From Nitrospirota bacterium (GTDB lineage: Bacteria > Nitrospirota > Thermodesulfovibrionia > Thermodesulfovibrionales > Dissulfurispiraceae), in assembly GCA_040754455.1 (NCBI GenBank), contig JBFMCP010000027.1:1-43444 (forward strand): 43,444 nucleotides of DNA. The letters are read 5' to 3'. The notes beneath the pieces are model-generated. The model did not search any database. It was not told where the DNA came from and saw nothing but the letters and a program-made list of their open reading frames with translations. Position numbers and translations under genes: made by a program. This document shows, in pieces, positions 18,945 to 43,444 of the stretch; position 1 is the stretch's first letter; each line of letters starts with the position of its first letter.

Positions 18945-18966
18945 CCAATATTCCAAGGAGGACGGT

Positions 18967-21647: not shown

Positions 21648-21657
21648 GGAGGAGATC

Positions 21658-25019: not shown

Positions 25020-26530
25020 TTTATCACCTCAATGATCTGTTGTGCGACCTGTTGCGGCTGCCCTGCGGTACTGACCCGATTAATGAGGTTCTGCACCGAG
25101 GCATCCATGAAGCTGAGCAGGGTGTTGGGGTAGAAGCCGACATAGAGCACCAGAAGCACCAGTGGTACAACGGTCAGTATCTCCCTGAAATTGACATCAG
25201 GGTGTCCCTGCACTTTTGGGTTCACTTCCATAAAGAAAACCCTTTGGTAGAGCCAGAGCATGTATGCGGCACCGATGATGATCCCTGTTGAGGCGAGGAC
25301 GCCCATCGGTTTGGATGCGGTAAAGCCGCCCAGGAGGATGAGGAACTCGCCGATGAAGCCGTTCGTTCCGGGGAGCCCTATCGATGCCAGGGTGAAAACC
25401 ATGAAGAGCGCTGCATAAATCGGGAGCACCGTAGCAGTACCGCCGTAATCGGCGATCTTTCGTGTATGGGTGCGGTCATAAATGATACCGACGCAGAGGA
25501 AGAGCCCGCCGGTAACAATGCCGTGGTTGATCATCTGCAGGATGCCGCCCTGGATGCCCTGCGTATTCAACGCAAAGATACCGAGCGTTACGAATCCCAT
25601 ATGGCTCACCGAGCTGTAGGCGATCAGCCGCTTGAGGTCGGTCTGGCCGAGACAGATCACCGCGCCGTAGATGATAGCGATGACCGAGAGGATCATCATC
25701 ACCGGCGACATTGCCCTGGTCGCTTCGGGCAGTATGGGCATGCTGAAGCGCAGGAAGCCGTAGGCACCCATCTTGATGAGAATGCCGGCCAGGATCACAC
25801 TGCCTGCAGTCGGCGCCTCGGTATGGGCGTCAGGCAACCATGTATGTACCGGAAACATGGGGACCTTGACAGCAAAGGCTGCAAAGAACGCCCAGAAGAG
25901 AATCAGCTGCAGATTAAATGGATACGTGGTATTCATCATCTGCAGGATATCGAACGATCTCCCGGTATTCAGATAGAGCACGATGATGCCGACCAGCATC
26001 AGCACGCTGCCGACCAGAGTAAAGAGGAAGAACTTGATGGCGGCGTAGACCCTGTTCGGGCCTCCCCATACGCCGATCAGGAGGAACATCGGAATGAGCA
26101 TCGCCTCCCAGAAGATATAGAAAAGAAAGAGGTCGAGGCTGCAGAAGACGCCGATCATCGCGCCTTCGGTCAGGAGCAATGCGGCATAAAATTCCTTTGT
26201 CCTGTCTTTTATGCTGTTCCACGAGACGGTCACGCAGAGGATGGTCAGGAGTGTCGAGAGCAGCACAAAGAGAACGCTGATGCCGTCCACGCCGAGAGCG
26301 TACTTTATGCCCCAGGAAGGTATCCATTGGTAGCTCTCGGTAAACTGCATGTTCGCCGTCGTCTTGTCGAAGTCGAGGAAGAGTGGAACGCTCAGAAAGA
26401 AGGTGAGCACGCTTAACAGCAGGGCGGTCCACTTGATAAGGGCCTCATTGCTCCTGCTCATAAGAAATATAAGCAATGCCCCTACGATGGGTAGGAATAT
26501 TACGGTACTCAGTATCGGGTAGCTCATCAA
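25016..26530 (-). CDS. nuoM: NADH-quinone oxidoreductase subunit M
   Basis: FWEAMLIP, KVPMFPVHTWLPDAHTEAPTAGS and AYSSVSHMG. Confidence 0.97.
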   Translation of the reverse strand: MMSYPILSTVIFLPIVGALLIFLMSRSNEALIKWTALLLSVLTFFLSVPLFLDFDKTTANMQFTESYQWIPSWGIKYALGVDGISVLFVLLSTLLTILCVTVSWNSIKDRTKEFYAALLLTEGAMIGVFCSLDLFLFYIFWEAMLIPMFLLIGVWGGPNRVYAAIKFFLFTLVGSVLMLVGIIVLYLNTGRSFDILQMMNTTYPFNLQLILFWAFFAAFAVKVPMFPVHTWLPDAHTEAPTAGSVILAGILIKMGAYGFLRFSMPILPEATRAMSPVMMILSVIAIIYGAVICLGQTDLKRLIAYSSVSHMGFVTLGIFALNTQGIQGGILQMINHGIVTGGLFLCVGIIYDRTHTRKIADYGGTATVLPIYAALFMVFTLASIGLPGTNGFIGEFLILLGGFTASKPMGVLASTGIIIGAAYMLWLYQRVFFMEVNPKVQGHPDVNFREILTVVPLVLLVLYVGFYPNTLLSFMDASVQNLINRVSTAGQPQQVAQQIIEVIK

Positions 26531-26538
26531 TCCTCCTC

Positions 26539-28479
26539 TTACTTTCCTGCCGACGCTATCAATACAAGGGTCATTATTACAAAGAGACCGATCGCCATAC
26601 TCACGGCGTAGTGCTGCAGATGGCCTGACTGCAGCTTTCTCAGTCGCTCTCCGAAATTGCCTATGGCCTTAGGCACACCGTTAACGATTCCTTCGATAAT
26701 GCCGCCGTCGGTCACTGCCATCAGCACATTGGTGGCAGCCCACTTCGTCGGCCTGACGATGATGAAGTCATACAGCTCATCGATATAGTATTTGTTCCAC
26801 AGCGTGGTGTAAATACCCTTGAAGGTTGCGGCGAGTGTCCTCGGTATCTCGGGCTTCAGCGCATAGAAGACCCAGGCGAAGAAGATGCCACCGAAGGCAG
26901 CGGCGATCGATATGCCGATGACCATCCACTCTTCCTCATGCGTTCCATGCACTTCGGGATGTCCGAGTACCGGCTCGAAGAAGTGGGCGACCCAGTTCCC
27001 GACGCCGATGTTCGAGCCGAGCAGCTCGGGGATGCCGACCCAGCCCGCGGCAATCGCGCCGATGGCGAGGATCATCAACGGAATCGTCATGGACTTCGGC
27101 GATTCGTGGAGATGGTGCTCCTGCTCGTGGGTGCCCCTGAACTTTCCATGGAAGGCGAGGAAAATGATTCTGAAGCTGTAGAAGGCGGTCAGTGCCGCAA
27201 CGACCGTACCCATTGCCCAGACGATCCTGCCAACGGTGCCGCCGTTGTAGGCCATCCAGAGGATCTCGTCCTTGCTGAAGAAGCCCGCCAGTCCCGGCAC
27301 GCCGGCGATACTTAATGAAGCGATGAGGAAGGTCCAGTAGGTGACGGGCATGTATTTTTTGAGGCCGCCCATCTTCTGGATATCCAGCTCACCTGCCATA
27401 GCATGCATGACGCTGCCAGCGCCGAGGAAGAGGAGGGCTTTGAAGTACGCGTGCGTATATAAATGGAACACGCCTGCTCCGTAAGCACCGACGCCGCAGG
27501 CCAGGAACATGTAGCCGAGCTGGCTTACGGTGGAGTAGGCGACAATTCTTTTTATATCATTCTGAACGAGAGCAATGGTCGCTGCAAAGAGGCTGGTGAC
27601 CGCACCGGTAATGGCGACGACATTCATCGCTATTGGAGAGAGGCTGAACAGCGGATTGAACCGTGCGACCATGAAGACACCGGCAGTGACCATGGTGGCA
27701 GCGTGGATCAAGGCGCTGACCGGCGTGGGGCCTTCCATTGCATCGGGCAGCCACACATGGAGCGGAATCTGCGCCGATTTACCGACGGCGCCGCAGAACA
27801 GGAGCAGCGCGATCAGGGTGATGAGATCGACGTTATAGCCGAACATCTGAATGGTCTGGCCCTGCAGGGTACCCACTGTTCCGAAAATGTCGGCATAGTG
27901 GACGCTGCCGAGGAAGAGAAAGATCATCATGACGCCGATGCCGAAGCCGAAGTCACCGAAACGGTTGACGATGAAGGCCTTCTTTCCGGCATCCGAGGCG
28001 CTCTTCTTTTCATACCAGAAGCCGATGAGGAAGTAGGAGCAGAGGCCCACCGCCTCCCAGCCGAAGTAGAGCTGCAGCAGGTTGTTGCCCATGACGAGCA
28101 TGAGCATCGAGAAAGTAAAGAGGCTGAGATACGAGAAGAACCGGTAGTAGCCGGGGTCGCCGTGCATATAGCCGACGGAGTAAATATGGACGAGAAGGCT
28201 GACGCTCGTCACCACGATGAGCATGATGGCCGTCAGCTGGTCGATCAGAAAGCCGATCGTCACCTTGAAATTTCCCGAGACGATCCAGCTGTAGACATCC
28301 TGGTTCACGGTCTTTCCCTGCGCGACCTCTCCGAAGGTCATCACGGCAATGATGAAAGAGCCCAACACGGCGGAGATCGCGATCCAGTGCGCCCTGTCCT
28401 TGATGAGGAACCTGCCGAAGAGGATATTGATGCAGAATGCTGCGAGCGGAAGAAGCGGTATTAACGTATATTTATCCAT
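26539..28479 (-). CDS. nuoL: NADH-quinone oxidoreductase subunit L
   Basis: GKSAQIPLHVWLPDAMEGPTPVSALIHAATMV. Confidence 0.97.
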   Translation of the reverse strand: MDKYTLIPLLPLAAFCINILFGRFLIKDRAHWIAISAVLGSFIIAVMTFGEVAQGKTVNQDVYSWIVSGNFKVTIGFLIDQLTAIMLIVVTSVSLLVHIYSVGYMHGDPGYYRFFSYLSLFTFSMLMLVMGNNLLQLYFGWEAVGLCSYFLIGFWYEKKSASDAGKKAFIVNRFGDFGFGIGVMMIFLFLGSVHYADIFGTVGTLQGQTIQMFGYNVDLITLIALLLFCGAVGKSAQIPLHVWLPDAMEGPTPVSALIHAATMVTAGVFMVARFNPLFSLSPIAMNVVAITGAVTSLFAATIALVQNDIKRIVAYSTVSQLGYMFLACGVGAYGAGVFHLYTHAYFKALLFLGAGSVMHAMAGELDIQKMGGLKKYMPVTYWTFLIASLSIAGVPGLAGFFSKDEILWMAYNGGTVGRIVWAMGTVVAALTAFYSFRIIFLAFHGKFRGTHEQEHHLHESPKSMTIPLMILAIGAIAAGWVGIPELLGSNIGVGNWVAHFFEPVLGHPEVHGTHEEEWMVIGISIAAAFGGIFFAWVFYALKPEIPRTLAATFKGIYTTLWNKYYIDELYDFIIVRPTKWAATNVLMAVTDGGIIEGIVNGVPKAIGNFGERLRKLQSGHLQHYAVSMAIGLFVIMTLVLIASAGK

Positions 28480-28481
28480 AG

Positions 28482-28784
28482 TTACCCTTTCATCTCCGTT
28501 ATTTCATCGGTATGTATTGCTGCCTTATTTCTGAACAAGGCCACCAGTATCGCCAAGCCTATGGCCGCCTCCGCCGCTGCCACCGTAATAATGAAGAAGA
28601 CCAGCACCTGCCCCCTCAGGTCCTGCAGATAATGGCTGAAGGCGACGAGGCTGATATTCACCGAATTGAGCATCAATTCAATGGACATGAGCATAATGAT
28701 GATGTTCCTTCTGATCAGAAATCCGACGACACCGATGATGAATATGACGGCGCTCAGCGCGATATACCATTCCAACGGTACCAT
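28482..28784 (-). CDS. nuoK: NADH-quinone oxidoreductase subunit K, 100 aa
   Basis: [26 protein letters not shown]. Start reassigned to ATG 28784. Confidence 0.95.
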
Positions 28785-28789
28785 GTTGT

Positions 28790-29296
28790 CTATACCCTCC
28801 TCTTTGCTAGTACGATAGCACCCACAATGGCGATCAACAGTACCAGCGAAGCGACTTCGAAGGGGAAGAGGTACTCGGTGTAGAGTAATGTGCCGATTGC
28901 CTTTGCGTGGGTCATTGATGTGATGTACTCGATCGTATGCTGTCCGGCGGGCCCCTGGGTAAGGCTGCCCATCACGAAGAGGATGAGCACCAGCAGGGAG
29001 AGCCCCAGCGCGACCCCGATGGGCCATTCCCCGGCAAAGCGGTCACCCTCCAGCTCTTCTTTGAGGTTGAGCATCATAACGACGAAGAGGAACAGGACCA
29101 AGATCGCTCCTGCGTACAGGATAAGCTGCACTGCGGCAAGGAACTCGGCGTTCAGGAAGAGATACACGGCGGCGATGTGAAAGAACATCGCCAGCATCCA
29201 GAGCACGCTGTGGACCGGATTCCGCCTGGTGATGATCAGCACCGATAGGACGGTCATTGCAACGGCAAAATATCCGAAGAAAATTTTAGGCAGCAT
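28790..29296 (-). CDS. nuoJ: NADH-quinone oxidoreductase subunit J
   Basis: [21 protein letters not shown] and PFEVAS. Confidence 0.96.
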
Positions 29297-29903
29297 TGCT
29301 CAGTTCCCCCTGGGCTTTTTCAGTATTCGTCTCTTTCTTCTGCACCGCTTCGGGAGCAGCGCTCTTTTTTCCCCTTAACACCGGCTGATCGTCATGGGCC
29401 ATGAAATCCTCGCTCATCGGCCTCCAGAAACGTTTGAAGTATACTTCGCCCTCCTTGCCCGCCATGTACTTGTCCCAGTTGGCAAGGAGCTTCGCTTTAT
29501 CCATATAGAGTGCCTCACGGGAGTAATCCGAATATTCGTAGTGGCGGGTGAGCGCCACGGCGCCGAAGGGACATGCCTCGACGCAGAACCCGCAGTAGAC
29601 GCAGCGGAGCAGCTCGATCTCGTACCGGTCCACGATCTTGGTGTGGTCCGGGCCCTCGCTGGTATAAACATAAATGCACCGGGACGGACAGACCGCCGCA
29701 CAGAGGCCACATCCTACGCACTTTGCATCGCCGTTTTCCTTCCGCACCAGGGCATGCAAGCCCCTGAATCCCGGGAACGCCTCGCGTTTCTCTTTAGGGT
29801 ATTGCCGTGTCACGGCAGGCGTGAGCATCATCCTGAAGGTCAGTGCCATGCCCTTCAGGATCTCAAGCATGAAGATTTTTTTTGCAATGTTCTTTAAGGT
29901 CAT
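29286..29903 (-). CDS. nuoI: NADH-quinone oxidoreductase subunit I
   Basis: FRGLH, CVGCGLCAAVCP and CVYCGFCVEACP. Confidence 0.96.
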   Translation of the reverse strand: MTLKNIAKKIFMLEILKGMALTFRMMLTPAVTRQYPKEKREAFPGFRGLHALVRKENGDAKCVGCGLCAAVCPSRCIYVYTSEGPDHTKIVDRYEIELLRCVYCGFCVEACPFGAVALTRHYEYSDYSREALYMDKAKLLANWDKYMAGKEGEVYFKRFWRPMSEDFMAHDDQPVLRGKKSAAPEAVQKKETNTEKAQGELSNAA

Positions 29904-29968
29904 AACCGTTCTCCCTCTCTATATACGCACCTTGGGTTTATTACTTGTTATCGTCCCTCTGATTTTTC

Positions 29969-31006
29969 CTATACGAAGTAGGCGACCAGCGACGTGACGA
30001 CGATGTTCGCCAACGCGAGCGGGATCAATACCTTCCACCCCAGCGACATCAGCTGGTCGTAGCGGTACCTCGGTACCGTCGCCCTTACCCAGTAGAAGAG
30101 GAAGATGTGGAAGTAGACCTTGAGCACAAACCAAACAATACCGGGCACTGCCAACAGCGCAGGAACCGCATTGGTGATCACCGGCGGAAGCGTCCAGCCG
30201 CCCCAGAAGCAGATGACGGCAATACTCGACATGACGATCATGCCGATATATTCCGCAGCGTAATAGAGGGCGAACCTCATGCCGCTGTATTCGGTAAAGT
30301 ACCCAGCCACCAGCTCGCTCTCCGCTTCGGGAAGGTCAAAAGGTGTTCTGTTCGTCTCAGCGAACATGGCGACAAGGAAGATGAAATATCCCACAATCTG
30401 CGGGAAAAGGAACATGCCGTACCAGCGCTGCTGCTGTGCATGAACGATTTCGGTAAGATTCAGTGACCCCGACAGAAGCATAACGCCGACAAGGCTCAGG
30501 CCCATGGCGACTTCATAGCTGATGACCTGCGCCGAAGACCTCAATCCGCCCAGGAAAGGGTATTTCGAATTCGATGCCCATCCTGCCATAACGACGCCAT
30601 ACGCTGCCATTGAAGACATGGCGAAGATATAGAGGAGTCCTACATTGATATCGGCAATGACGAATCCTTCAAAAAAGGGCACAACAGCCGCAGAGCTCAA
30701 CGATGCAAAGAGAATGATGATGGGCGCGATCTTGAAGACCGTCTTATCAGCATTCGCAGGGATGATATCCTCTTTGAAAAAGAGCTTGACACTGTCGGCA
30801 ATCGGCTGCAGGATACCGTGGGGGCCTACCCTCATGGGACCAAGCCGTATCTGCATATGTCCTATCACCTTCCGCTCAAAGTAGGTGGCATAGGCCACAT
30901 GGAACATCACCGCTCCCACAACCACGGCGATCTTGATAAGGATCACGACGACGTTCAAAAGGAAATTGTCACTTCCTGCCGACAGAAACGCTTCGATCAT
31001 ATTCAC
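29969..31006 (-). CDS. nuoH: NADH-quinone oxidoreductase subunit H
   Basis: ERKVIG..RLGP, AETNRTPFDLPEAESELV and PRYRYDQLM. Confidence 0.97.
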   Translation of the reverse strand: MNMIEAFLSAGSDNFLLNVVVILIKIAVVVGAVMFHVAYATYFERKVIGHMQIRLGPMRVGPHGILQPIADSVKLFFKEDIIPANADKTVFKIAPIIILFASLSSAAVVPFFEGFVIADINVGLLYIFAMSSMAAYGVVMAGWASNSKYPFLGGLRSSAQVISYEVAMGLSLVGVMLLSGSLNLTEIVHAQQQRWYGMFLFPQIVGYFIFLVAMFAETNRTPFDLPEAESELVAGYFTEYSGMRFALYYAAEYIGMIVMSSIAVICFWGGWTLPPVITNAVPALLAVPGIVWFVLKVYFHIFLFYWVRATVPRYRYDQLMSLGWKVLIPLALANIVVTSLVAYFV

Positions 31007-33624
31007 GCAGCCACCTCCGCAGTCATTCGCTCGCTCTTCGTTACCGTGACCTCAATGCCGTCCAATGCCGGTATTTTCATGACCGCATTCAGCTTCCACG
31101 GCAGAAGCTTGAATGCCCCCCGCTCTTCAACATTATTCGGTACCAGAACCAGCCCCTCGGGCATATCGGCAAACACCAGTGCCGGCAGCTCGAGCGTATC
31201 CGTTTCGGTCGAGAGGCTGACATAGTCGCCGTCGGCGACCTCCAGTCGTTTCGCGATGCTGCTGCCGATCTTTACATACGGCTTCGACGAGATACTGTTC
31301 AACGCCGCCGAATGCCTGCTCTGGCTCGCCGAATGGAAGAGCGGTTTATCGATACCTATGTAGAGTTTGCTCTTGTCGCTCTTCTTCAGCAGCGATTTCA
31401 TGTCAGGCATGCTGAGCCCCTCGATGCCGGCATCGTGCCGTAAGGGCTCGCCTTTGTACGGCCACATACATTCCCCGCCGTCCATATCCTCATAGCTGAT
31501 TCCCTTGTGAAGCGGGGAGACCTTAGCGATCTCGGCCAAAACATCCTGTGCATCCCTGTACTGCATGGCAACGCCCAGCCTCGTGCTGATCTCGGCAAGG
31601 ATCTTCCAGTCCTCGATTCCCTGTCCCCCGATGGCCTTCCGCAGGTGCTGCATTCTGCCTTCGAGGTTGGTATACGAGCCCTCTTTCTCCGACCAGGAGA
31701 GTGAAGGCAGTACCACATGGGCACGCTGTGCCGTCTCATTGAGGAAGATGTCCTGGACAATGAGGAAGTCGAGGGTGGACAATACCTCTTTTACGAATTT
31801 CTGTCCCGGCACATTGAATGCCACATTCTCGCCCATCACGTAGAGGGCCTTTATACGTTTCGCTTTGATGCCTTCTATGATCTCCATCAGGCCCAGCCCG
31901 GGGGCAGAAGGTATCTCGCCTTTTACAAACTCTTCATAGCGCTTTCTGAAGCTTTCGACCGCAACCGGCCGTGCACCGGGGAGCATGTCGGGCAGGCACC
32001 CCATATCGACCAGGCCCTGCTCATTGGGGAGCTCGGAAGAGAGATAAATACGGCCGTTCAGAATATGGACCAGCGCGGCGAGGAGCAGGATCGTGGTATG
32101 CCCGTCGGTCCTCTGGATAATATCCCTGCCGATGATCACCGACGGATTCGTGACACCGGAGAGATTTTCGACACAGGCCTCAAGCTCCTTCACCGGAATA
32201 CCGCATACCTCGGATGCTTCGGCAAGCGAGATGGACTGGAGTTTTCCGATGATCTCTCCGAACGCGCTCTTCTCACCCGAAAGCGGCTTTTTCTTGAGCA
32301 GTTCGGAAACCAGTGCTGCCAGAAGCGTCGTCTCGGTGAAGGGAGCCGGGAGCAGCCGGTTCGTGCTGAACCTCCTCAATCCCGCTGCATAGCCGACCGT
32401 AACGACGGGAACCCCCTGCTGAGCGACTGCCCTGATCTGCAGTCCCAGCACCGGATTCACTGACGTAGGGTCGCCGCCGATGGTAAAGACGCCGTCTGAT
32501 TTTGCGATACCGCTGATCGGATTTGCGGTCACTCCCTGTCCGAAGATCTTCCCGAAGAGACGCTGTGCAGGGGCAAAGGCAAAGCCTGCGACGGAATCGA
32601 TATTGTTGCTGCCCAAGGCGACCCTCATGAATTTCTGGAAGACATAGTTGTCTTCGTTCGTACAGCGTGCCGAGGCCACCCCCGCAATGGCGTTTCCGCC
32701 GTGCTGTTCCTTGATGGTCTTCAGCTGCTGTGCGATATAGGCGAAGGCTTCACTCCAGGTCGTCTCCTGGAGCACGCCGTCTTTTCGTATCATTGGTGAT
32801 TTCAATCTCTTGGGGCTGTTGACGTAATCGTAGCCGAACCTTCCCCTGTTGCAGAGGAGGCCGTTATTGACGCCTTTTCCGGCCTCGGGCACGACCCTTA
32901 TGATCGCGTCGCCTCTCGACTGGACCGTGAAGGTGCATCCCACGCCGCAGAAGGAGCAGATCGTATCCACATTCTTCTCGATGAACCATGGCCGATAGGT
33001 ATGCTTATGAAGTCTCGATATGATGGCACCCACCGGGCAGACGGTCAGACAGTTGCCGCAGTATTCGCAATTATACCGACCGCCGGAAAAGGGCTCGACA
33101 TAGGTCTTGCTCGTCCTGTTGACCATGGAGATGGCCGATGCGCCCTGCACCTGGTTGCACATCCGGACGCACCGCGTACAGGAAATGCAGCGCTCCATGT
33201 TGCGCACGATGATCGGATCGTCATAGCTTTCCGGATGTTTCCGTTTGCCCTCGGCAAAGCGCCCTGTCGTGGGGCCGTACTTTACCACGAGGTCCTGAAG
33301 GTCGCACTCGCCGGCTTTGTCGCAGTAGGGGCAATCGAGGGCGTGGTTGATGAGGAGAAATTCGAGCATCGCCTTCCTCGCATCGATGACCCGCTCGGTC
33401 TCGGTCCTGACGACCATGCCGTCAGTGACGCTCAGGGTGCATGCGGTCTGGAGCCTCGGAAGCTTCTCCACCTCCACAAGACAGAGCCTGCAGCCGCCGA
33501 ACGGCTTGAGCATTTCATGGTGGCAAAGCGTCGGGATCTTGATTCCCGCCACCTTGGCTGCCTCAAGAATGGTAACCGGCTTTTCAAGTTTGATCTGTTT
33601 TTCGTTGATGGTTACTGTTATCAT
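31003..33624 (-). CDS. nuoG: NADH-quinone oxidoreductase subunit G (long, FdhF-like), 873 aa
   Basis: N1b C..GGCRLC..C, N5 HALDCPYCDKAGEC, CISCTRCVRMC, CEYCGNCLTVCP and N7 CSFCGVGC..C. It lies between nuoF and nuoH. Confidence 0.9.
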   Translation of the reverse strand: MITVTINEKQIKLEKPVTILEAAKVAGIKIPTLCHHEMLKPFGGCRLCLVEVEKLPRLQTACTLSVTDGMVVRTETERVIDARKAMLEFLLINHALDCPYCDKAGECDLQDLVVKYGPTTGRFAEGKRKHPESYDDPIIVRNMERCISCTRCVRMCNQVQGASAISMVNRTSKTYVEPFSGGRYNCEYCGNCLTVCPVGAIISRLHKHTYRPWFIEKNVDTICSFCGVGCTFTVQSRGDAIIRVVPEAGKGVNNGLLCNRGRFGYDYVNSPKRLKSPMIRKDGVLQETTWSEAFAYIAQQLKTIKEQHGGNAIAGVASARCTNEDNYVFQKFMRVALGSNNIDSVAGFAFAPAQRLFGKIFGQGVTANPISGIAKSDGVFTIGGDPTSVNPVLGLQIRAVAQQGVPVVTVGYAAGLRRFSTNRLLPAPFTETTLLAALVSELLKKKPLSGEKSAFGEIIGKLQSISLAEASEVCGIPVKELEACVENLSGVTNPSVIIGRDIIQRTDGHTTILLLAALVHILNGRIYLSSELPNEQGLVDMGCLPDMLPGARPVAVESFRKRYEEFVKGEIPSAPGLGLMEIIEGIKAKRIKALYVMGENVAFNVPGQKFVKEVLSTLDFLIVQDIFLNETAQRAHVVLPSLSWSEKEGSYTNLEGRMQHLRKAIGGQGIEDWKILAEISTRLGVAMQYRDAQDVLAEIAKVSPLHKGISYEDMDGGECMWPYKGEPLRHDAGIEGLSMPDMKSLLKKSDKSKLYIGIDKPLFHSASQSRHSAALNSISSKPYVKIGSSIAKRLEVADGDYVSLSTETDTLELPALVFADMPEGLVLVPNNVEERGAFKLLPWKLNAVMKIPALDGIEVTVTKSERMTAEVAA

Positions 33625-33626
33625 GG

Positions 33627-34880
33627 CTACACACTCACCGCTTCTTTTATTTTGTTTTCAAACTCATTTCTAAAGTGCTTGATGAAGCTCTGCACGACCG
33701 TTGCAGCACCGTCGCCAAGAGGGCAGAAGGTCTTGCCCAGGATGTTTTTGGAGACTTCCATGAGGAGGTCGATATCGCCCTCTCTCCCCTGTCCCGAATT
33801 TATTCTGACCAGGATGCTCCGCAGCCAGCCCACGCCCTCCCTGCAGGGAGTGCACTTTCCGCATGATTCGTGTTCAAAAAACTTGATGGCTCTGAGGCAG
33901 ACCTTCACCAGGTCGACCGACTCGTCAAAGACCATTACTGCTCCGGAACCGAGCATGCTACCGTGTTTGGGCATGCTCGGGAAGTCCATAGGGCAGTTGA
34001 GCTTGTCTCCCGGAAGGACCGGCGTCGAAATACCGCCGGGGATGACCGCCTTGATCTTCTTGTCGCCGAGGATGCCGCCGCAATGGTCATAAATGATATC
34101 TTTCAGCGTCGTCCCCATCGGAAGCTCATAGACACCGGGCTTTTTGACATGGCCGCTCACAGAGTAAAGTTTAGGTCCAGGGCAATCGGCGCTGCCGATC
34201 TTTGAATAGGCCTCAGCGCCGATAGTTATTATATAAGGGATGTTGGAAAGGGTCTCGACATTATTGACGACAGTCGGCTTTGCCAGGAATCCTTCGTTGA
34301 CCGGGAACGGAGGCCTCGTTCTCGGCTGTCCTCTCTTGCCCTCAAGGGATTCAATCAAGGCAGTCTCCTCGCCGCAGATATAGGCGCCTGCGCCTTGATG
34401 GACATAAAGGTGAAAGCGTATGCCTTTTCCGAGGATGTTATCGCCAAGGTAACCTTTTTCGTAGGCCTGTGCAATGGCGCCTTCGAGGATATCCTTTGCC
34501 TTCGGGTATTCACCCCTGAGGTAAATATAGCCGTATTCCGCCTGGAGCGCATGGCCGGAAATGGCCATCCCTTCAATCAGGAGATGCGGATTCTTTTCGA
34601 GGATGGGACGGTCTTTGAATGTTCCGGGCTCGCCTTCATCAGCGTTGCAGACGAGATACTTCGGCTTCTTCGGATCGGCTGCGGCAAACGACCACTTCAT
34701 GCCGGTCGGAAAGCCTGCGCCGCCCCTTCCCCTCAGTCCGGATTTTTTTACTTCATCAATGATATCGGAGGGCTTCATGTCGATCGCCTTGGCAAGCGCC
34801 GCATAGCCTCCGGTTTTGACGTATTCGCTGAGGTCTGCTGAGTTCGGGTTGCTGATATTTTTTAACAGAAATGGTTCCAT
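33627..34880 (-). CDS. nuoF: NADH-quinone oxidoreductase subunit F
   Basis: GLRGRGGAGFPTGMKW, NADEGEPGTFKDR, GAGAYICGEETAL and ESCGKCTPCREG. Confidence 0.97.
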   Translation of the reverse strand: MEPFLLKNISNPNSADLSEYVKTGGYAALAKAIDMKPSDIIDEVKKSGLRGRGGAGFPTGMKWSFAAADPKKPKYLVCNADEGEPGTFKDRPILEKNPHLLIEGMAISGHALQAEYGYIYLRGEYPKAKDILEGAIAQAYEKGYLGDNILGKGIRFHLYVHQGAGAYICGEETALIESLEGKRGQPRTRPPFPVNEGFLAKPTVVNNVETLSNIPYIITIGAEAYSKIGSADCPGPKLYSVSGHVKKPGVYELPMGTTLKDIIYDHCGGILGDKKIKAVIPGGISTPVLPGDKLNCPMDFPSMPKHGSMLGSGAVMVFDESVDLVKVCLRAIKFFEHESCGKCTPCREGVGWLRSILVRINSGQGREGDIDLLMEVSKNILGKTFCPLGDGAATVVQSFIKHFRNEFENKIKEAVSV

Positions 34881-34889
34881 AGCTCGTCC

Positions 34890-35354
34890 CTACTTATAAC
34901 TTTCCAGAATTTTAAAGATATTCTCTTCAGTCAGATTGTCATGGAAATCCGTGTTCACGAGCATCGCCGGTGCCGTACCGCAGGCGCCGATGCACTCCAT
35001 GATGACCAAAGAAAACCTGCCGTCGGCAGTCGTCCCGTTCGGCTCAAGGCCGTATTTCTGCTTGAGCAGATCGACGAGCCGCTCCGCCCCCATAATCATG
35101 CAGGCCACGTTGGTGCAGAGCTGGATCACGTGCCTGCCCACCGGCTTGTGTCTGAACATGGAATAAAAGGTCGCGACGCCTTTTACCGTCGCTTTCGGGA
35201 TATTCAACAAATCTCCCACTTCGGCCATTGCCTCGGGGGCGATCCAGCCGTTCTCCCGCTGCACCACATAGAGGCTGGGCAGCAGCGTTGACCGTGGCTC
35301 CTGGTACTTGCTTTTGATTCTGTTAATTTCCGTTATAACTTTTTCGCTCAGCAT
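34890..35354 (-). CDS. nuoE: NADH-quinone oxidoreductase subunit E
   Basis: VATFYSMF, CTNVAC and ECIGACGTAP. Confidence 0.96.
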   Translation of the reverse strand: MLSEKVITEINRIKSKYQEPRSTLLPSLYVVQRENGWIAPEAMAEVGDLLNIPKATVKGVATFYSMFRHKPVGRHVIQLCTNVACMIMGAERLVDLLKQKYGLEPNGTTADGRFSLVIMECIGACGTAPAMLVNTDFHDNLTEENIFKILESYK

Positions 35355-35362
35355 AATTTCCC

Positions 35363-36568
35363 TTACCGATCGACCTCTCCAAGGACGATATCAATTGTAC
35401 CTATGTTTGCGATAACATCAGCTACAAGAGCGCCTTCACAAAGCTTCGGCAACACCGATACATGGACGAATGAGGGTGACCTCAATCTCATCCGGTACGG
35501 CCTCCCTGTGCCGTCGCTCACAATGTAGAATCCCAATTCCCCTTTGGGCACTTCAGTGGCAGCATAGATTTCGCCTTCCGGCGCAGCAATCGGGCCTTTG
35601 GTAATCAGGACAAAGTGGTGAATGAGCGACTCCATATCACTCAAGACCCTGTCCTTCGGCGGAAGGGTGAACTTCGGGGCATCAGGAGCTATGATCGGTC
35701 CCTTCGGCATCTGCTCAAGGCACTGTTTGATGATGCGGTTGGACTGCTTGAGCTCTTCCATCCTGCAGAGATAGCGGTCATAGACATCGCCGTTCTTCCC
35801 TACGGGAACATCGAACTCCACCTTGTCGTAGGCATCGTAGGGTGCGACCTTCCTTATATCATAGGGCACACCCGATCCTCTCAACGTGGGACCGGTCAGC
35901 CCCCAGTTGATCGCATCCTCAGCGCTGATGACGCCGATTCCTTTTGTCCTTTGCAGCCAGATTCTATTTTCGTTAAGTAAGGTTTCGTATTGCTCTTCGA
36001 TGATCTTGGGATATTTTTCGGTAAAGTCGTAGAGCTTATCGATGAACTCCTGACTCACATCGTTCCGCACGCCGCCGATCCTCGGGTAGCTTACGGTGAG
36101 CCGGGCGCCGCAGGTCATCTCGAACAGATCGAGGAGCTGCTCTCTGTCCCTGAAGGAATAGAGAAAGAGGGTCATGGCGCCGATATCGAGGGCATGCGTT
36201 GCAATGCCAATGATATGGCTGCTGATCCTCGTCATCTCACACATAATCGTTCTGATGTATTTGGCTCTTTCGGGTACCTCGATACCGAAGAGCTTCTCGA
36301 CAGCAACACAATAGCCGACATTGTTCGACATGCTCGAGATGTAATCCAGACGGTCGGTCAGCGGCAGTGCCGAGGCATACGTTCTGTCTTCAGCCAGTTT
36401 CTCAACTCCCCTATGCAGGTATCCCACATAAGGCGTGCACTTTTTGATGGTCTCTCCCTCGAGATCGAGCACGAGCCGGAGCACGCCGTGCGTTGCCGGG
36501 TGCTGCGGCCCCATGCTGACGGTCATTTCTCTTGATTTCAGTCCGTTTCCGTTGGTCGCCTCTGCCAT
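35363..36568 (-). CDS. nuoD: NADH-quinone oxidoreductase subunit D
   Basis: [28 protein letters not shown] and GEVDR. No hydrogenase CxxC motifs. Confidence 0.97.
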
Positions 36569-37105
36569 TTACCTAACCTCGTATCCTTTATTCTTTTCAG
36601 CTATTGCGATGACGTCCTTGAACCCTTTCCATTCCATCTCTCCGAGATCGCTCTTGAGCGGGTAGTCCTTGCGCAGGGGATGCCCTTCCCAATCCTCGGG
36701 CAGCAGGATCCTCCTCGGATCAGGATGACCATTGAAGACCACGCCGAGCAGGTCATAGCACTCTCTCTCGTGCCAGTTTGCCCCTGCCCATATATCGACG
36801 ACGCTGTCGATCGTGCAGTCATCCTCAGGGACCTCTGCCTTGATCCTTATCATATGCCCATGTCGCATTGAATAAAGGTGATACACCACTTCAAACCTCG
36901 GCTCTTTCTTGCCGAGGTAGTCGACACCGCCGAGGTCTTCCAGGAAGTTGAAGTACAGTTCGGGCGTCTCGTAGAGAAACCGCATCATCTCTTTGATTCT
37001 ATCCTTCTTGACCGTTACCGATACCTGACCGCGGAATTCTCTTATCTCTTTTACCTCCGTCGGGTACCTGTCCTTTATCTTCTCTGCAATCTCTTTTGGA
37101 TCCAT
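36569..37105 (-). CDS. nuoC: NADH-quinone oxidoreductase subunit C
   Basis: RFEVVYHL, ANWHERECYDLLG and GHPLRKDYP. Confidence 0.97.
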   Translation of the reverse strand: MDPKEIAEKIKDRYPTEVKEIREFRGQVSVTVKKDRIKEMMRFLYETPELYFNFLEDLGGVDYLGKKEPRFEVVYHLYSMRHGHMIRIKAEVPEDDCTIDSVVDIWAGANWHERECYDLLGVVFNGHPDPRRILLPEDWEGHPLRKDYPLKSDLGEMEWKGFKDVIAIAEKNKGYEVR

Positions 37106-37121
37106 TGCCTTCCTCGATGTA

Positions 37122-37140
37122 GGTCCGCCTTAGGCGGACC
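37122..37140. repeat. REP-like palindrome between nuoB and nuoC
   Basis: GGTCCGCC-TTA-GGCGGACC. Confidence 0.6.
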
Positions 37141-37146
37141 GAAATG

Positions 37147-37686
37147 TTAGCGCCATCTGCTCCACTTAAAGTGCTCTTTCTTTATCTTCTCCTGCAGCTT
37201 GATGATACCTTCCAGGAGCGCTTCAGGCCTCGGCGGACATCCGGGGACATATACGTCCACCGGCAGGAACGTATCCACGCCCTGAACAGTGCTGTAGGAG
37301 TTGAATATGCCTCCGCTGTTAGCGCAGCTGCCCATAGAGATAACATAGCGCGGCTCGGGCATCTGGTCATACACCCTTCGTACGATAGGCGCCATCTTCT
37401 TGGTTACCGTGCCGGCGATGATCACGAAGTCAGCCTGTCGCGGCGAGCCTCTGAAGATAATGCCCAATCTATCCAAATCATAGTGTGACGATCCCGTCGT
37501 CATCATTTCAATGGCGCATCAGGCCAGGCCGAAGGTCATCGGCCACAATGACGACATTCTGCCCCAGTTGACCAGCTTATCGAAGCTCGCGATAAGCGTG
37601 TTGGCGCCGGGGATAACCCTCAGTCCCTTCTCTATCTCAACAACTTCCGAGTCAGTGTGGGGAGTGGTTATGATATCGGTTGTCAT
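37147..37686 (-). CDS. nuoB: NADH-quinone oxidoreductase subunit B with an in-frame UGA at codon 56 (putative Sec), 179 aa
   Basis: RBS AAGGAGGT and ATG 37686. Reads ..[14 protein letters not shown](37521-37519)-[31 protein letters not shown]. Confidence 0.92.
37486..37502 (-). promoter_or_regulatory. Putative SECIS in nuoB
   Basis: mRNA sense TGACGA-CGGGA-TCGTCA. The loop starts 22 nt after the UGA. Confidence 0.65.
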
Positions 37687-37792
37687 AGACTGTTCACCTC
37701 CTTATTTTTGCGTTATTGCGTTTATTGCGTTGTGAGTTATCGCGAAAAAAGGAAAGTCGCTACAACGCTCAACGCTATAACTCTAAAACGCT

Positions 37793-38176
37793 TTAGTCCC
37801 ATTTAAATGCTTCTTTTCTCCATGCATAGAGATAGCCCACCACAAGCATGGCGATAAAGAGCATCATTTCGACCAGGGCGTACAGGCCGATCTTGTTATA
37901 TACCAGCGCCCAGGGATACAGGAACACGGCTTCCACATCGAAGATGACGAAGAGCATGGCGATGATGTAGAACTTGACGCTGAACCTGATCCGCGGTTCT
38001 CCTACCGGAGGGTTTCCTGATTCATAGGGCATGAGCTTTTCGTCGTACGGCCTCCTGATCCTGAAGAGTCCGCCGATGAGAAGGGCGCCTGCACCGAAGG
38101 CTGCTGCGATTACCATGAAAATCAGAATGGGAAGGTATTCGGTAGGAACGTAACTGCCAGGGGTCATCGGGTTCAT
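37793..38176 (-). CDS. nuoA: NADH-quinone oxidoreductase subunit A
   Basis: PYESG and FYIIAMLFVIFDVEAVFLYPWA. Confidence 0.96.
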   Translation of the reverse strand: MNPMTPGSYVPTEYLPILIFMVIAAAFGAGALLIGGLFRIRRPYDEKLMPYESGNPPVGEPRIRFSVKFYIIAMLFVIFDVEAVFLYPWALVYNKIGLYALVEMMLFIAMLVVGYLYAWRKEAFKWD

Positions 38177-39382: not shown

Positions 39383-42300
39383 TTATATTTTTACCAGCTT
39401 CACCTTCGTATCATAGAACGAGACGCTGCCGCCGACAGGGTCGAGCATGCAGGTATTCTTCAGGTGAGGATCGACCCACATAGCGGCATTTGCGTGAATT
39501 CCGGTAGCCCTCCTCGGGTCTCCTTTTATGACCCTGCCGTCTATCATAAAATCCGAGGCGCCTGTTGCCCACAGGCCATGCCCGAGGGTAAAGGTGATGA
39601 CGCCGGGCATAATCGTCTCCGTAACCATCACCTTGCCGACCATGGGCTTCTTGTTGCCGCCCTTGAGGTCATATATCCCCTCCGGATTGGTGGACGAGAC
39701 CACCTTCACCCTGTCGCCGTCCTTAAGCCCCATCTTTTTAGCATCGGCCGAGTTTATGATCACCTCGTTCTCAGGTCGGATGGCAAGAAGCCAATAATCG
39801 ACTATGGTACGGGATTTGGTCATAGTGACATCCCGCTGGGTCAGGAGGTGCAGAGGATAGCCGTCCTCCAGCCCGCTCTCTTTCGGAGATTTGCCCAGAG
39901 CGCTTGTTATGGGCAGATATGTGGCGTATCCGGGGTTCGATTTTCCGGTAAAGGCGTTCTTCGTGCCTGCCGTCTTCTCCTGGTAAATGTTGATAGCGAT
40001 CTTGTACTGGTTTGCCACGAGGTCGCCCTTATAGATGTCCGCATATTCCTGGAACCGGCCGCCGCGGTTCAGCACATAGACCACCTTGCGCCAGTTCGGG
40101 CCCGCTATCTTCTCCCATCTTGCGGAGTCGAAGACGGTCTTCGGCAGATGCTTTCTCGAATCGAGGAAGAGCTGAAGCTCCCTGTCATCCGCATCCGGCA
40201 CCGGCGTTCCCTCTGTGGCACAGTTGGCGACCATTCTTATATAAAAATCGTCCGGCTTCGTGAAATCCTGCCCCGGGCCGAAGCCGTCCTTACCATAGCC
40301 CTTCATCCCGAGCTTCTCGGCAAGGGCCAATATCAGGGCCTCGTAAGAGCACGGCATCTCTTCTCCGAAGACGGTTACCGTTTCCGTTATAGGTGCGATG
40401 ACCGGCTGTCTTATCGGCTGGACTTTTGCCGGCATGTTCGGGTGCGAGCCCTGCATCTCCCAGCGCTCCAGATACGAGAGGTCGGGGAAGATGTAATCCG
40501 CGTACAGGGAGGTAGTGCCTATCAGGATGTCGGACGCGAAATAGAGAGGTATCTTGTTCACATCTGCAAGGATCTCGATATTGGTGTGGCCGGCCGGAAG
40601 CGCGTAAGTGGGCGCGCCCATGTAGCTGAAGACCGCCTTGATGGGATACGGATAAGCATCTCCCGTCGAGGGAATTATCTCCTCGTAGATGTCGCTTGCC
40701 AGCGGCCACCAATTCCTCTTGGCAGGGTATCCTTCAAAGAGAGTGGAATCCTCGTACTTTATATCGTGCCTAATGATACTTATCCCGAACTTCGTGGTTT
40801 TGCCGGGCTTCAACTTGCCCAGATTAAAAGGCTGGCCCTCCTTGTCACCCATTACGTTATATGCAGAGGCAGAAATCATCCCCCCCTTCCAGTCGAAATT
40901 GCCAAGGAGCAGGTTCAAGGTCATCGCGCCCGTCACGTTGTAGAAGCCGTTCGTGTGCTGGGCTATGCCCCTGTGCACATCGACGACCGCCTGCTTGCCG
41001 TAGCTCGTAAGTTCCTTGGCCGTAAGCTCGATATCCGGGACACTTATGCCGCATATCTTCGACCATTCGGCCATGCTCTTTGAGTTTGCCGAATCGGCCA
41101 GCACTTGAAGGCCGCTCTTTACCTTTATGCCGTTTATCTCGGTATCCACGAGGAGGTCGCCTGTCACAGGATTCTTCTCGTCATTCGGATCGACCGCAAC
41201 GGGCTTGCCGTCCTTCATGCAGACGAGGTACTCGAAATCGTGCTCTTTGCCCTCCTTGTCCTTCCGCTTTTCGGGCCGGGCAAGGCCGATCTCCTGCGCC
41301 CTCAGGAACTTGCCCGGCTTGCCTTTGTCGTCCAGCTTCACCAGGAGTACGGCATTCGTCCATGTGGGCTCGCCGGCCGCTTTTGCAGCTGACTTATTGG
41401 CATTGGCCAGGTATTTGGCATCATACTTTTTGTTCTTGATTATCCATTGGATAAGTCCCATAAAAAAAGCGCCGTCTGTGCCGGGGATAATGGGCATGTA
41501 CCTGTGCGCCTTTGAAGCCGCCTTGTTGAAACGAGGATCTACAACGACAAGCTTTGTCTTCCCCTGGAATATGTTCGGCACGATCCTGGCATTTCTGTTC
41601 GGCGGCCCGTAATTGGCATCGAAGAGATTTGAGCCCACCGAGAGGACGTACTTGGAGTTCTCGAAGTCTCCCTGCCAGTAGAACTTCTTGCCTCCGCCGA
41701 ACTTGTTGAACTCGTACTGCTCGCTCATTGCCTTGCAGGTAAAATAGAGCGAGCCTTGACAGACGGTGGTGTGCCCGTGGGTATTGGTCGTGCCGAAATA
41801 GTCGTTGAAGAATCTGAGAGAGAAATCGCTCCGTCCGGCCTTCTTCCTGCCCCAGAAATAAAGCAGCTGATTGTTTTTGGGGCCGAGGTCGGGGTGATCG
41901 GGGTCTATCAGGTAATGCAGGTTCGCTGCGTGCTTCGTCTTGAATTCTTCGACCGCCTTTTTCTTGTCCTTCGCTTTTGCCAGCGCCTTTACGTCATCAG
42001 CCATCGCTTTGGCAATCGCCGGATCTCTCAGCGCATAGATATCTTTGAGACCGGGTACCACTCTGTTTTCCTCTCCGGGCACGTGAGCGAAGAGTGTTCC
42101 GCCGTTCACGATCTCATCGATTGCCTTGCCGAAAGGTATGGTTGTCCATTTGTTCTCGCCCCTCTTGCCGGCCCTCTTCAGCACCTTCGTAATCCTGTAA
42201 GGGTCGTACGCCGTCTGTATGCCCGCCTGGCCTTTGGGACAGATAGCCATGTCAATTGTGTTTACATCAAACGGTGAGGTCTTATAAGAAAGGGAGGGCA

Positions 42301-42601
42301 CCGAAACGAACGGGTTATAGGGATTGCCGTCTATCTTCAGGGCCACGGCATCTCCGTTCTTGCGGAAAAACTTCACCTTTATACCGCATCCGGTATTGCA
42401 CTGCAGGCAGGCGGTGTACAATGTGTTTTCCGCCTTGATGAGCTCGTACTCCTCCTCGGGCGTAAGCATGCCCGCCTCGGCCCTGCGCAGGAGGTCACCA
42501 GCCCATCCCTGTGAGGCAAGGATCCCGCCGCCCACGATGGCCGAGCATTTCATGAAATCCCTTCGAGTCATTCCATTCTTTTTATCTTTATGTTCCTTCA
42601 T
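39383..42601 (-). CDS. ttrA: Tat-exported Mo/W-bisPGD oxidoreductase, TtrA-like, 1072 aa
   Basis: Twin-Arg TRRDFMK, Fe-S motif CLQCNTGC..CPKGQ, putative Mo ligand HTTVCQGS, YADYIFPD..LERW and the C-terminal DPVGGSVSFYDTKV. Substrate not provable from sequence. Confidence 0.8.
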   Translation of the reverse strand: MKEHKDKKNGMTRRDFMKCSAIVGGGILASQGWAGDLLRRAEAGMLTPEEEYELIKAENTLYTACLQCNTGCGIKVKFFRKNGDAVALKIDGNPYNPFVSVPSLSYKTSPFDVNTIDMAICPKGQAGIQTAYDPYRITKVLKRAGKRGENKWTTIPFGKAIDEIVNGGTLFAHVPGEENRVVPGLKDIYALRDPAIAKAMADDVKALAKAKDKKKAVEEFKTKHAANLHYLIDPDHPDLGPKNNQLLYFWGRKKAGRSDFSLRFFNDYFGTTNTHGHTTVCQGSLYFTCKAMSEQYEFNKFGGGKKFYWQGDFENSKYVLSVGSNLFDANYGPPNRNARIVPNIFQGKTKLVVVDPRFNKAASKAHRYMPIIPGTDGAFFMGLIQWIIKNKKYDAKYLANANKSAAKAAGEPTWTNAVLLVKLDDKGKPGKFLRAQEIGLARPEKRKDKEGKEHDFEYLVCMKDGKPVAVDPNDEKNPVTGDLLVDTEINGIKVKSGLQVLADSANSKSMAEWSKICGISVPDIELTAKELTSYGKQAVVDVHRGIAQHTNGFYNVTGAMTLNLLLGNFDWKGGMISASAYNVMGDKEGQPFNLGKLKPGKTTKFGISIIRHDIKYEDSTLFEGYPAKRNWWPLASDIYEEIIPSTGDAYPYPIKAVFSYMGAPTYALPAGHTNIEILADVNKIPLYFASDILIGTTSLYADYIFPDLSYLERWEMQGSHPNMPAKVQPIRQPVIAPITETVTVFGEEMPCSYEALILALAEKLGMKGYGKDGFGPGQDFTKPDDFYIRMVANCATEGTPVPDADDRELQLFLDSRKHLPKTVFDSARWEKIAGPNWRKVVYVLNRGGRFQEYADIYKGDLVANQYKIAINIYQEKTAGTKNAFTGKSNPGYATYLPITSALGKSPKESGLEDGYPLHLLTQRDVTMTKSRTIVDYWLLAIRPENEVIINSADAKKMGLKDGDRVKVVSSTNPEGIYDLKGGNKKPMVGKVMVTETIMPGVITFTLGHGLWATGASDFMIDGRVIKGDPRRATGIHANAAMWVDPHLKNTCMLDPVGGSVSFYDTKVKLVKI

Positions 42602-42614
42602 GTATCGATCCCCC

Positions 42615-43322
42615 TTATGGCAGTATGTAAAATACCCGGGGCCTGGTGGCTGCGGACTCTGCAAAGACCGGGGCCTTGCCGGGGTAGTTTATCTTTTCCG
42701 CAATCTCCATCGGTTTCATCCCTGCGAACATGCCGGTGGCCACTTTGGTGTCGTGCCTGGGCAAGGTCTCCTTGAGGACCATCACCTTGTTCTCTTTCAT
42801 CATCTTGTAGATGAGGCTTTCCTTGTCCTGCGGATCTCCGAAAAAGTTCGCCCTGCAGGGGCAGGTGCTTACGCAGGCGGGAACCATCCCTTTTCTCAGT
42901 CTGTGAAGACAGAAATGGCACTTCCTGACAACGCCCATCGGAAGCTCGGGCCTTTTCCTGGGCCATTTGCGGCTGTATTCCCATGTAGGAGAGGTATCGT
43001 AGTGCTGCATCCGCGGAGTGCCTTCGGTATAGAACCTGCCGGCATCGAGGGTGCGGGCCTTGTAGGGGCATCCGGCCACGCACCGGCCGCACCCGATGCA
43101 CTGCTCGTAATTGATCATCACTATGCCCGCGCTGTCTCCTTTCGTGCTCTTCCATGTGGCCTTGCCCTCTCCCTTATTGGGGCAGGCCTCCACGCATGGA
43201 GGGTTGTCGCACTGATTGCACAGCCTTGGGGTAAAACGCCTCTTGACCTTCGGGAACGTCCCCATCTCCTCTTCGTAAACCGGCCTGTACATCACACCCG
43301 GGGGGCTCTTCTGCTCGGCTAT
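42615..43322 (-). pseudogene. ttrB: TtrB/NrfC-type 4Fe-4S subunit, 3' part; 5' part cut off by an IS
   Basis: CNQCDNPPC..CP, CIGCGRC..CPY and KCHFC..PACVSTCP are present. The first CxxCxxCxxxC, expected just before IAEQKSPPGV, is replaced by IS sequence. Confidence 0.8.
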
Positions 43323-43444
43323 AATACTCCCCAAAAACTGGACAGGGGTATTTAGTGGATAATAGAGCCTGTAAGGACTCCGAAGGAGGACAGGCGAGGA
43401 TGGGAAAGACGACAAAATCACGGGACGCTGCATTAAAGGCAAAG
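43322..43444 (+). mobile_element. Left end of an IS3-family element with the start of OrfA
   Basis: IRL-like TAATACTCCCCAAAAACTGGACAG, RBS AGGAGG, and ATG 43400 giving MGKTTKSRDAALKAK (IS3 OrfA-like). Runs off the window. Confidence 0.75.

Follow-up and report, generated by a model that had tools for sequence, protein, structure and literature searches.

A putative selenocysteine codon at the first cluster N2 ligand of NuoB in complex I of a Nitrospirota bacterium

Results

An in-frame TGA at a ligand codon of nuoB

We analysed a 43,444-nt stretch of DNA from a Nitrospirota bacterium (contig JBFMCP010000027.1, family Dissulfurispiraceae), referred to below as the window. Its minus strand carries a nuoA-N operon for respiratory complex I (Table 1), within which nuoB encodes the 20-kDa subunit, also known as PSST or Nqo6. 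The nuoB open reading frame (ORF) runs from an ATG to a TAA and is interrupted by one TGA, codon 56, which we propose to be a codon for selenocysteine (Sec, U). With this codon read as U, the product has 179 aa and the site has the context TFGLA-U-CAIEMM, in which the TGA takes the place of the leading Cys in the tandem Cys-Cys pair that ligates cluster N2. The remaining N2 ligand positions, C57, C121 and C150, are kept. A Shine-Dalgarno sequence, AAGGAGGTG, was read directly from the sequence 8 nt upstream of the start codon. An initial annotation of the window had described nuoB as GLA-UGA-CAIEMM with UGA replacing the leading Cys of the conserved GLACCAIEM motif, an intact ribosome-binding site, an intact frame on both sides of the UGA and 13 other intact nuo genes. 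All of this was borne out by the reading of codon 56, by its alignment with NDUFS7, by the uninterrupted frame onwards to TAA and by the matches of nuoA and nuoC to nuoN to their own Pfam families.

With C substituted for U, the product scored 107 bits against Pfam PF01058 (cut-off 27) and 256.5 and 246 bits against the NCBIfam models NF005012 (cut-off 116) and TIGR01957 (cut-off 142.7). In a phmmer search, the product matched NDUFS7/PSST chains from complex I structures with an E value of about 1e-65, and U56-C57 fell on the 'cc' of 'tfglaccavemm'. The 46 solved-structure sequences that were matched are Cys forms, as judged from two displayed alignments. By its family scores, its ligand positions and its place in the operon, the window gene is a member of the NuoB family in which one ligand is UGA-encoded. 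As described in PMC8042128, cluster N2 is a [4Fe-4S] cluster and the direct electron donor to quinone; four Cys of the NuoB-type subunit ligate it, and two of them form a strained tandem pair (C85/C86 in Yarrowia) whose leading member is the more mobile and lies near the quinone-binding tyrosine of NDUFS2. Since U56 falls on the leading C of the NDUFS7 pair, it is this mobile first tandem ligand that the UGA replaces. The NADH-oxidising module NuoE, NuoF and NuoG is included in the operon, and the complex is an ordinary 14-subunit NADH:quinone oxidoreductase outside the NuoB site.

Table 1. Features of the window; positions are counted from its first letter.
Feature	Position	Strand	Remark
nuoB	37147..37686	minus	179 codons including one in-frame TGA; start ATG 37684..37686, end TAA 37147..37149
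Proposed Sec codon of nuoB	37519..37521	minus	TGA, codon 56; first Cys of the tandem N2 ligands
Shine-Dalgarno sequence of nuoB	37695..37703	minus	8 nt 5' of ATG
SECIS-like hairpin of nuoB	37486..37502	minus	UGACGA-CGGGA-UCGUCA; 6-bp stem; stem from 17 nt, loop from 22 nt past UGA
Peroxiredoxin (AhpC/PrxU-like), second Sec-type gene	16275..16910	plus	FYPADFTFV-U-ATE
TGA of peroxiredoxin	16443..16445	plus	codon 57, peroxidatic Cys position
Hairpin of peroxiredoxin	16458..16476	plus	8 bp, loop GGC; begins 13 nt past UGA
nuoA-N operon	23625..38176	minus	complete, 14 genes; Pfam complex I family match for every ORF
nuoA	37793..38176	minus	Pfam match
nuoC	36569..37105	minus	Pfam match
nuoD	35363..36568	minus	Pfam match
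nuoE	34890..35354	minus	Pfam match
nuoF	33627..34880	minus	Pfam match
nuoG	31003..33624	minus	Pfam match; TIGR01973 483 bits (cut-off 470)
nuoH	29969..31006	minus	Pfam match
nuoI	29286..29903	minus	Pfam match
nuoJ	28790..29296	minus	Pfam match
nuoK	within 28482..29027	minus	Pfam match
nuoL	26539..28479	minus	Pfam match
nuoM	25016..26530	minus	Pfam match
nuoN	23625..25019	minus	Pfam match
nuoA-nuoB spacer	37687..37792	minus	106 nt
Fur-family regulator	15743..16162		oxidative-stress cluster
Rubredoxin-domain ORF	16799..17182		oxidative-stress cluster
Flavodiiron protein	17730..18944		oxidative-stress cluster
Rubrerythrin	18907..19461		oxidative-stress cluster
Multihaem cytochrome c	19523..21067	plus	514 aa
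TtrA/PsrA-like molybdopterin oxidoreductase region	39383..43442	minus	5' of nuo operon
Methylase- and helicase-domain genes	3282..9714	plus

TGA at the ligand codon in related genomes

Related loci were compared at the DNA level by scanning one genome per species, which yielded 80 loci. At the equivalent of codon 56, TGC or TGT was present in 76 of them and TGA in four, namely in Nitrospirae GWB2_47_37 (L001), Nitrospirota MAG011 (L007), 'Deltaproteobacteria' S143_37 (L009) and Nitrospirota MAG218 (L010). The order nuoA-nuoB-nuoC-nuoD is found in all four. Hence the TGA is not unique to the source genome. The nearest NuoB relatives come from metagenome-assembled genomes (MAGs) named Nitrospirae/Nitrospirota, Thermodesulfovibrio and Thermodesulfovibrionales, which makes an anaerobe of the Thermodesulfovibrionia type the probable source, and Cys-form relatives reach 82% identity (L004). 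As in known Sec genes, the UGA is aligned with Cys in homologues, it recurs across species, and the coding sequence is conserved both before and after it. The next ATG lies 12 nt past the TGA, and the stretch in between encodes C-A-I-E in each of the five TGA sequences, that of the window included; these four codons vary at three third positions, every change being synonymous. This argues that they are under in-frame purifying selection, since a stop at codon 56 followed by a restart would leave them unconstrained.

Searches of a protein collection extended the comparison. The 55 residues upstream of the TGA, used as query against targets of 30–97 aa, gave 74 matches, 62 of which end exactly in FGLA, meaning that gene callers halted at codon 56. 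Most of these ORFs are 48–57 aa long, with several on contigs whose lengths range from tens of kb to 159 kb. They represent distinct 90%-identity clusters in which the TGA is implied from the protein end, with organism names available for few. In the remaining 12 the ends are scattered, as partial ORFs would show. Two short ORFs with Proteobacteria-type NuoB N-termini (P0067 and P0074) also end at FGLA; their contigs are only about 600 nt long, and they may mark UGA outside the clade of Nitrospirota and Thermodesulfobacteriota described below or be chance truncations. The C-terminal 119 residues, searched at E ≤ 1e-30 with scoring confined to the 8000 best candidates, gave 7816 matches. The best 120 of these comprise 100 full-length CC forms, 19 pieces of 118–119 aa that begin at the Met-Met four codons past the TGA, and one GC form. 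Judged by these 19 among the 120 best matches, the stop codon is carried by about a sixth of the nearest sequence clusters. The GC form is a full-length NCBI MAG protein (P0080) with the reading FGLA-G-CAIE and 93% identity to the C-terminal part.

A quick maximum-likelihood tree was calculated from 81 NuoB cores, with the Sec site scored as C in every row. All five TGA sequences (Sec forms) fell into one clade of 16 rows from Nitrospirota and Thermodesulfobacteriota, with a Shimodaira–Hasegawa-like approximate likelihood ratio support (SH-aLRT) of 96, where 11 Cys forms are interspersed among them. The other 65 rows, from Acidobacteriota, Actinomycetota, Pseudomonadota and others, contain no Sec form. 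The tree requires four changes between Sec and Cys, of which the well-supported branches force just one. Such a mixture within one clade is the usual pattern of Sec and Cys forms. The nearest Cys form (L004) retains five of the six stem pairs of the hairpin that follows the window UGA, which is consistent with a recent switch between Sec and Cys.

RNA structure downstream of the UGA

A 6-bp hairpin with a G-rich loop had been noted after the UGA in the initial annotation. It is present, and its spacing is compatible with a bacterial Sec insertion sequence (SECIS). The bacterial SECIS (bSECIS) model given in PMC13188914 asks for a loop of 3–9 nt, an upper stem of 4–16 bp, a G in the first two loop positions, 16–37 nt from UGA to loop and a minimum free energy of −7.5 kcal/mol or lower. 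The window hairpin fits in its loop (5 nt), its stem (6 bp), the G at position 2 and the spacing (22 nt); its energy is −6.5 kcal/mol. Each of the five TGA sequences can fold into a hairpin with its 5' arm beginning 17 nt past the UGA, and their loop sizes, the G within the first two loop positions and the spacings of 20–24 nt agree with the model. That of L001 is the same as in the window. The hairpins of L007 (7 bp, one bulge, loop AGGU) and L009 (8 bp, loop GGA) are longer, and the one of L010 has only 4 bp, with the loop CGUGUAU.

Within the clade, the region from +13 to +40 folds more stably in the five Sec forms (mean −8.5 kcal/mol) than in the 11 Cys forms (mean −4.25 kcal/mol; one-sided Mann-Whitney p = 0.012). 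The fractions of synonymous recodings that were as stable as the Sec forms were 0.15, 0.14, 0.085, 0.026 and 0.37. By Fisher's method, four independent Sec sequences, L001 being left out for its hairpin identical to that of the window, were more stable than their encoded protein demands (p = 0.02), and the corresponding value for the 11 Cys forms was p = 0.68. The strict bSECIS test was passed by 0 of 11 Cys forms in the clade. Over all 81 sequences the hairpin energies did not differ significantly (p = 0.064), in a comparison confounded by GC content. Taken together, the folding data lend moderate but not decisive support to a SECIS element in nuoB.

Signs of Sec use in the window and its lineage

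The initial annotation had also noted a second Sec gene in the window. We identified it as a peroxiredoxin with a TGA at the position of the peroxidatic Cys, and standard ORF calling divides it at this codon. It shows the PxxxTxxU motif that PMC13188914 describes for Sec-peroxiredoxins. With 204.9 bits against the AhpC model (cut-off 272) and 176.8 bits against PrxU (cut-off 270), it lies under both equivalog cut-offs and is therefore a relative of PrxU-type Sec-peroxiredoxins, not a confirmed PrxU orthologue. Its hairpin (−8.3 kcal/mol, 20-nt spacing) passes the strict bSECIS test, and the loop, (U)GGC(G), is akin to the CGGGA loop of nuoB at a similar distance from the UGA. The peroxiredoxin is relevant here only as a marker of Sec use.

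Among 32 confident genes of the window, 20 end in TAA, eight in TAG and four in TGA; since TGA serves as an ordinary stop in the latter, it is not reassigned genome-wide. In-frame TGAs inside recognisable genes were found only in nuoB and the peroxiredoxin, both at Cys-homologous sites. An NCBIfam scan of the neighbouring genes gave no additional selenoprotein family. For the lineage as a whole, Sec use is supported by PMC13188914 and PMC13510729, which place Sec machinery or selenoproteins there: selC is embedded in selB in Nitrospirae according to PMC13188914, and the multihaem cytochrome selenoprotein MccSep is common in Thermodesulfovibrionia according to PMC13510729.

Further Sec genes were sought as TAA/TAG-bounded frames containing one TGA. 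The candidates 16519..17637, 10836..11546 and 21643..22923 were translated and turned out to be adjacent genes or non-coding frames. The frame 21658..22923 (plus strand), considered as a Sec fusion, consists of a CMD/AhpD-like gene ending in TGA and an in-frame, TTG-started radical SAM/SPASM gene. We read these as two adjacent genes, because the CMD domain is complete and there is no Cys-homologous position at the TGA.

Genomic surroundings

The nuoA-nuoB spacer is unusually long and contains three GCGUU and three AACGC repeats. It folds as a long imperfect hairpin (−25.5 kcal/mol, z −1.8), with 10 of 200 shuffled sequences being equally stable. In L001 the spacer is short, nuoB starting about 30 nt past the end of nuoA. 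The spacer hairpin is possibly a genome-specific processing or regulatory element.

The peroxiredoxin heads an oxidative-stress cluster, which also holds a multihaem cytochrome and a flavin mononucleotide reductase in addition to the genes listed in Table 1. The multihaem cytochrome c matches Pfam multihaem families and, weakly, a hydrazine dehydrogenase model; it is without an in-frame TGA. Upstream of the nuo operon lies a TtrA/PsrA-like molybdopterin oxidoreductase, a 1093-aa ORF with a twin-arginine-like N-terminus that scored 461 bits with the TtrA model, far under its cut-off. It is preceded by a 4Fe-4S dicluster subunit, which reaches position 43442, two bases from the right end of the window. 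This enzyme is a candidate sulfur-compound reductase. Towards the other end, genes for a 1021-aa protein with an N6/N4 DNA methylase domain and a 1068-aa protein with a ResIII/SWI2-SNF2 helicase domain lie in a stretch with a GC content of 0.45–0.49 compared with about 0.53, and look like a restriction-modification or defence pair.

Discussion

The initial annotation proposed that the UGA of nuoB is recoded to Sec. This proposal gains support from the recurrence of the TGA, the exclusively synonymous change in the codons that follow it, the intact operon and the second Sec-type gene, to which the hairpin adds moderately. We consider it very probable, on sequence evidence, that UGA-56 is decoded as Sec. 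A conserved TGA with a covarying SECIS had been envisaged as well. The recurrence was found; the covariation was not, as RNAalifold on the five TGA sequences gave no compensatory pairs (0 of 9 predicted pairs).

Several observations weigh against recoding. The registers of the five hairpins differ, and the RNAalifold consensus was a different stem, which is broken in the window and in L001. The window hairpin is weak: at −6.5 kcal/mol it fails the strict bSECIS test on energy, and 15% of its synonymous recodings are equally stable. Only two of the five Sec forms pass that test, and the test is not specific, since 27 of the 76 Cys forms also pass, all of them from GC-richer genomes outside the clade. 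Folds of the 91 nt and 50 nt after the UGA were no better than shuffled sequences (z −0.32 and +0.22, respectively). No Rfam SECIS was detected in the whole window at the gathering score or in 37300..37700 at E ≤ 10, where only chance-level matches to small nucleolar and long non-coding RNAs were returned. The outer UGRC...GYCA pairing also occurs in Cys forms, where it follows from conserved codons. Neither selA, selB, selC nor selD lies within the 43-kb window, and its sole tRNA is tRNA-Ser(UGA), with no tRNA-Sec. Finally, no residue of NuoB or NuoD was found to co-vary with the Sec/Cys state. As no residue tracks the state and the two forms interchange among relatives, Sec would be a simple drop-in ligand at a site that has not been remodelled.

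The alternative that survives best, improbable as we judge it, is that UGA is read as Cys, Trp or Gly without selenium, either through a near-cognate or suppressor tRNA or because the Sec machinery is charged with Cys. The lack of Sec machinery genes in the window would agree with such a decoding, and so would the Gly of P0080. This Gly is presumably an annotation artefact, the TGA having been translated under a code-25-type annotation in which it stands for Gly. Gly or Trp would be unable to ligate N2, and a general reassignment of TGA is at odds with its use as an ordinary stop in four of the 32 genes. Moreover, both in-frame TGAs of the window occupy redox-active or metal-binding Cys positions, which is the signature of Sec, and the class is reported as a Sec user in PMC13188914 and PMC13510729.

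Slightly less probable still is a true stop, by which NuoB would be made as a 55-aa piece and a 119-aa piece restarted at the ATG-ATG 12 nt past the TGA, or nuoB would be a pseudogene, leaving complex I without N2 or inactive. Gene callers predict exactly these two pieces in many databases, and the weakness of the window hairpin would fit as well. A restart, however, would delete both tandem Cys ligands, yet every other nuo gene is intact. The interruption recurs in at least 62 separate 90%-identity clusters and in the genomes of four species, the codon is TGA in each of the five DNA sequences and in none TAA or TAG, and the four supposedly untranslated codons show synonymous change only. A sequencing or assembly error in the window, for which a single-base difference from TGC or TGT would suffice, is effectively refuted by the same base in four independent assemblies of different species and by dozens of independent protein clusters, drawn from several sources, that imply the TGA.

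If UGA-56 is a Sec codon, as we favour, a SelB/tRNA-Sec system would decode it with the aid of the short hairpin about 20 nt downstream, and this decoding would yield full-length NuoB. Judged by homology, selenium would then take the place of sulfur in the first of the two adjacent N2-binding Cys. That the selenium-ligated N2 is functional and has physiological consequences seems somewhat more probable than the contrary. We lean to a similar degree towards the wider notion that Thermodesulfovibrionia-type Nitrospirota and some Thermodesulfobacteriota run complex I with a selenolate-ligated N2, its activity being selenium-dependent.

Two benefits may be imagined, both speculative. The tandem-Cys ligation of N2 has long been discussed in the coupling of redox chemistry to proton pumping, and ligand-dissociation behaviour has been reported for the complex I of Thermus. 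The lower pKa of a selenol and a longer Fe-Se bond could change the potential and the protonation of N2. Sec might thus tune the N2 potential and its redox-linked protonation for a low-potential quinone, which is assumed for such anaerobes. Alternatively, Sec might make it easier for an anaerobe under oxygen stress to repair a strained and exposed ligand after oxidation, an idea that fits with the neighbouring cluster, since this cluster with its Sec-peroxiredoxin suggests a heavy investment in oxygen defence. The rationale given for [NiFeSe] hydrogenases in PMC13188914 is of the same kind: Sec resists irreversible over-oxidation and is readily re-reduced.

Should N2 indeed carry a selenolate, the Fe-S relay of a respiratory chain would have its first natural selenium ligand, and the NADH:quinone oxidoreductase activity of these organisms would depend on selenium. 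Selenium would sit at a mobile, strained ligand beside the quinone-binding tyrosine and would change the N2 potential, the coupling to protonation or the tolerance to oxidation. A core respiratory enzyme would join a selenoproteome that otherwise consists mainly of thiol oxidoreductases and Mo/W/Ni enzymes, and the energy metabolism of widespread sulfur-cycling anaerobes would be tied to selenium supply. A natural Sec-for-Cys exchange at N2 would also provide a built-in probe, through 77Se hyperfine coupling in electron paramagnetic resonance, an X-ray anomalous signal and a shifted pKa or potential, and Sec and Cys orthologues with up to about 82% identity would form a natural comparison pair. 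For annotation, the consequence is that many MAGs have nuoB split or dropped at codon 56, so that the completeness of complex I is under-called in this group.

The view of the initial annotation that NuoB is not a classic selenoprotein family agrees with Table 1 of the 2026 review PMC13188914, where NuoB/PF01058 is absent from the 119 prokaryotic selenoprotein families and subfamilies. A NuoB entry was likewise not found by term search in the main texts on deep-Sep (PMC12013277) and BSepDB (PMC13326102). The deep-Sep supplement has only NADH oxidase and NqrE, and NuoB occurs nowhere in one supplementary file of BSepDB, which is possibly incomplete. In the searched portions of PMC5109826, PMC5736913, PMC2398784 and PMC9723677, selenium and NuoB terms co-occur only in unrelated passages. 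Full-text searches, which covered openly accessible papers, found no account of a Sec-containing NuoB. As far as could be searched, Sec-NuoB is undescribed, and it would be new both as a selenoprotein family and as a form of complex I.

Comparison with known systems

Canonical NuoB/Nqo6/NDUFS7 proteins belong to the same family as the window protein, with about 60% aligned identity to the solved chains and the same ligand spacing (56-57, C121, C150), and their gene likewise lies between nuoA and nuoC within a nuo operon of 14 genes. The difference lies in the first tandem ligand, which is encoded by TGY there and by UGA here.

Sec as a metal ligand is established in the formate dehydrogenase alpha subunit (Mo/W) and in the large subunits of [NiFeSe] hydrogenases (Ni), and Fe-S-binding selenoproteins have been predicted, namely the 2Fe-2S protein of the Csac_0668 family with its 'CU' motif, HgcB ferredoxin, HesB-like proteins and nitrogenase alpha. 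Like these, Sec-NuoB would have Sec where a homologous Cys binds the metal, would be found in anaerobes and would have Cys counterparts in sister lineages. Families with a 'CU' motif also have an adjacent Cys/Sec pair (Table 1 of PMC13188914); in the window NuoB the order is U-C. None of these selenoproteins is a subunit of complex I, and the site in the window is an electron-transferring [4Fe-4S] cluster of a respiratory chain, in contrast to the catalytic Mo, W or Ni sites.

The small subunits of group 4 [NiFe] hydrogenases (MbhJ, HycG, FrhG) are evolutionary cousins of NuoB, with a homologous fold and proximal-cluster site. Accordingly, the window NuoB matched MbhJ (5.5e-29) and formate hydrogenlyase subunit 7 (3.4e-25) and, weakly, FrhG, VhuG and the NiFeSe small subunit. 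In the [NiFeSe] enzymes, as described in PMC13188914, Sec resides in the large subunit at Ni, whereas in the complex I considered here it would reside in the homologue of the small subunit, at the cluster.

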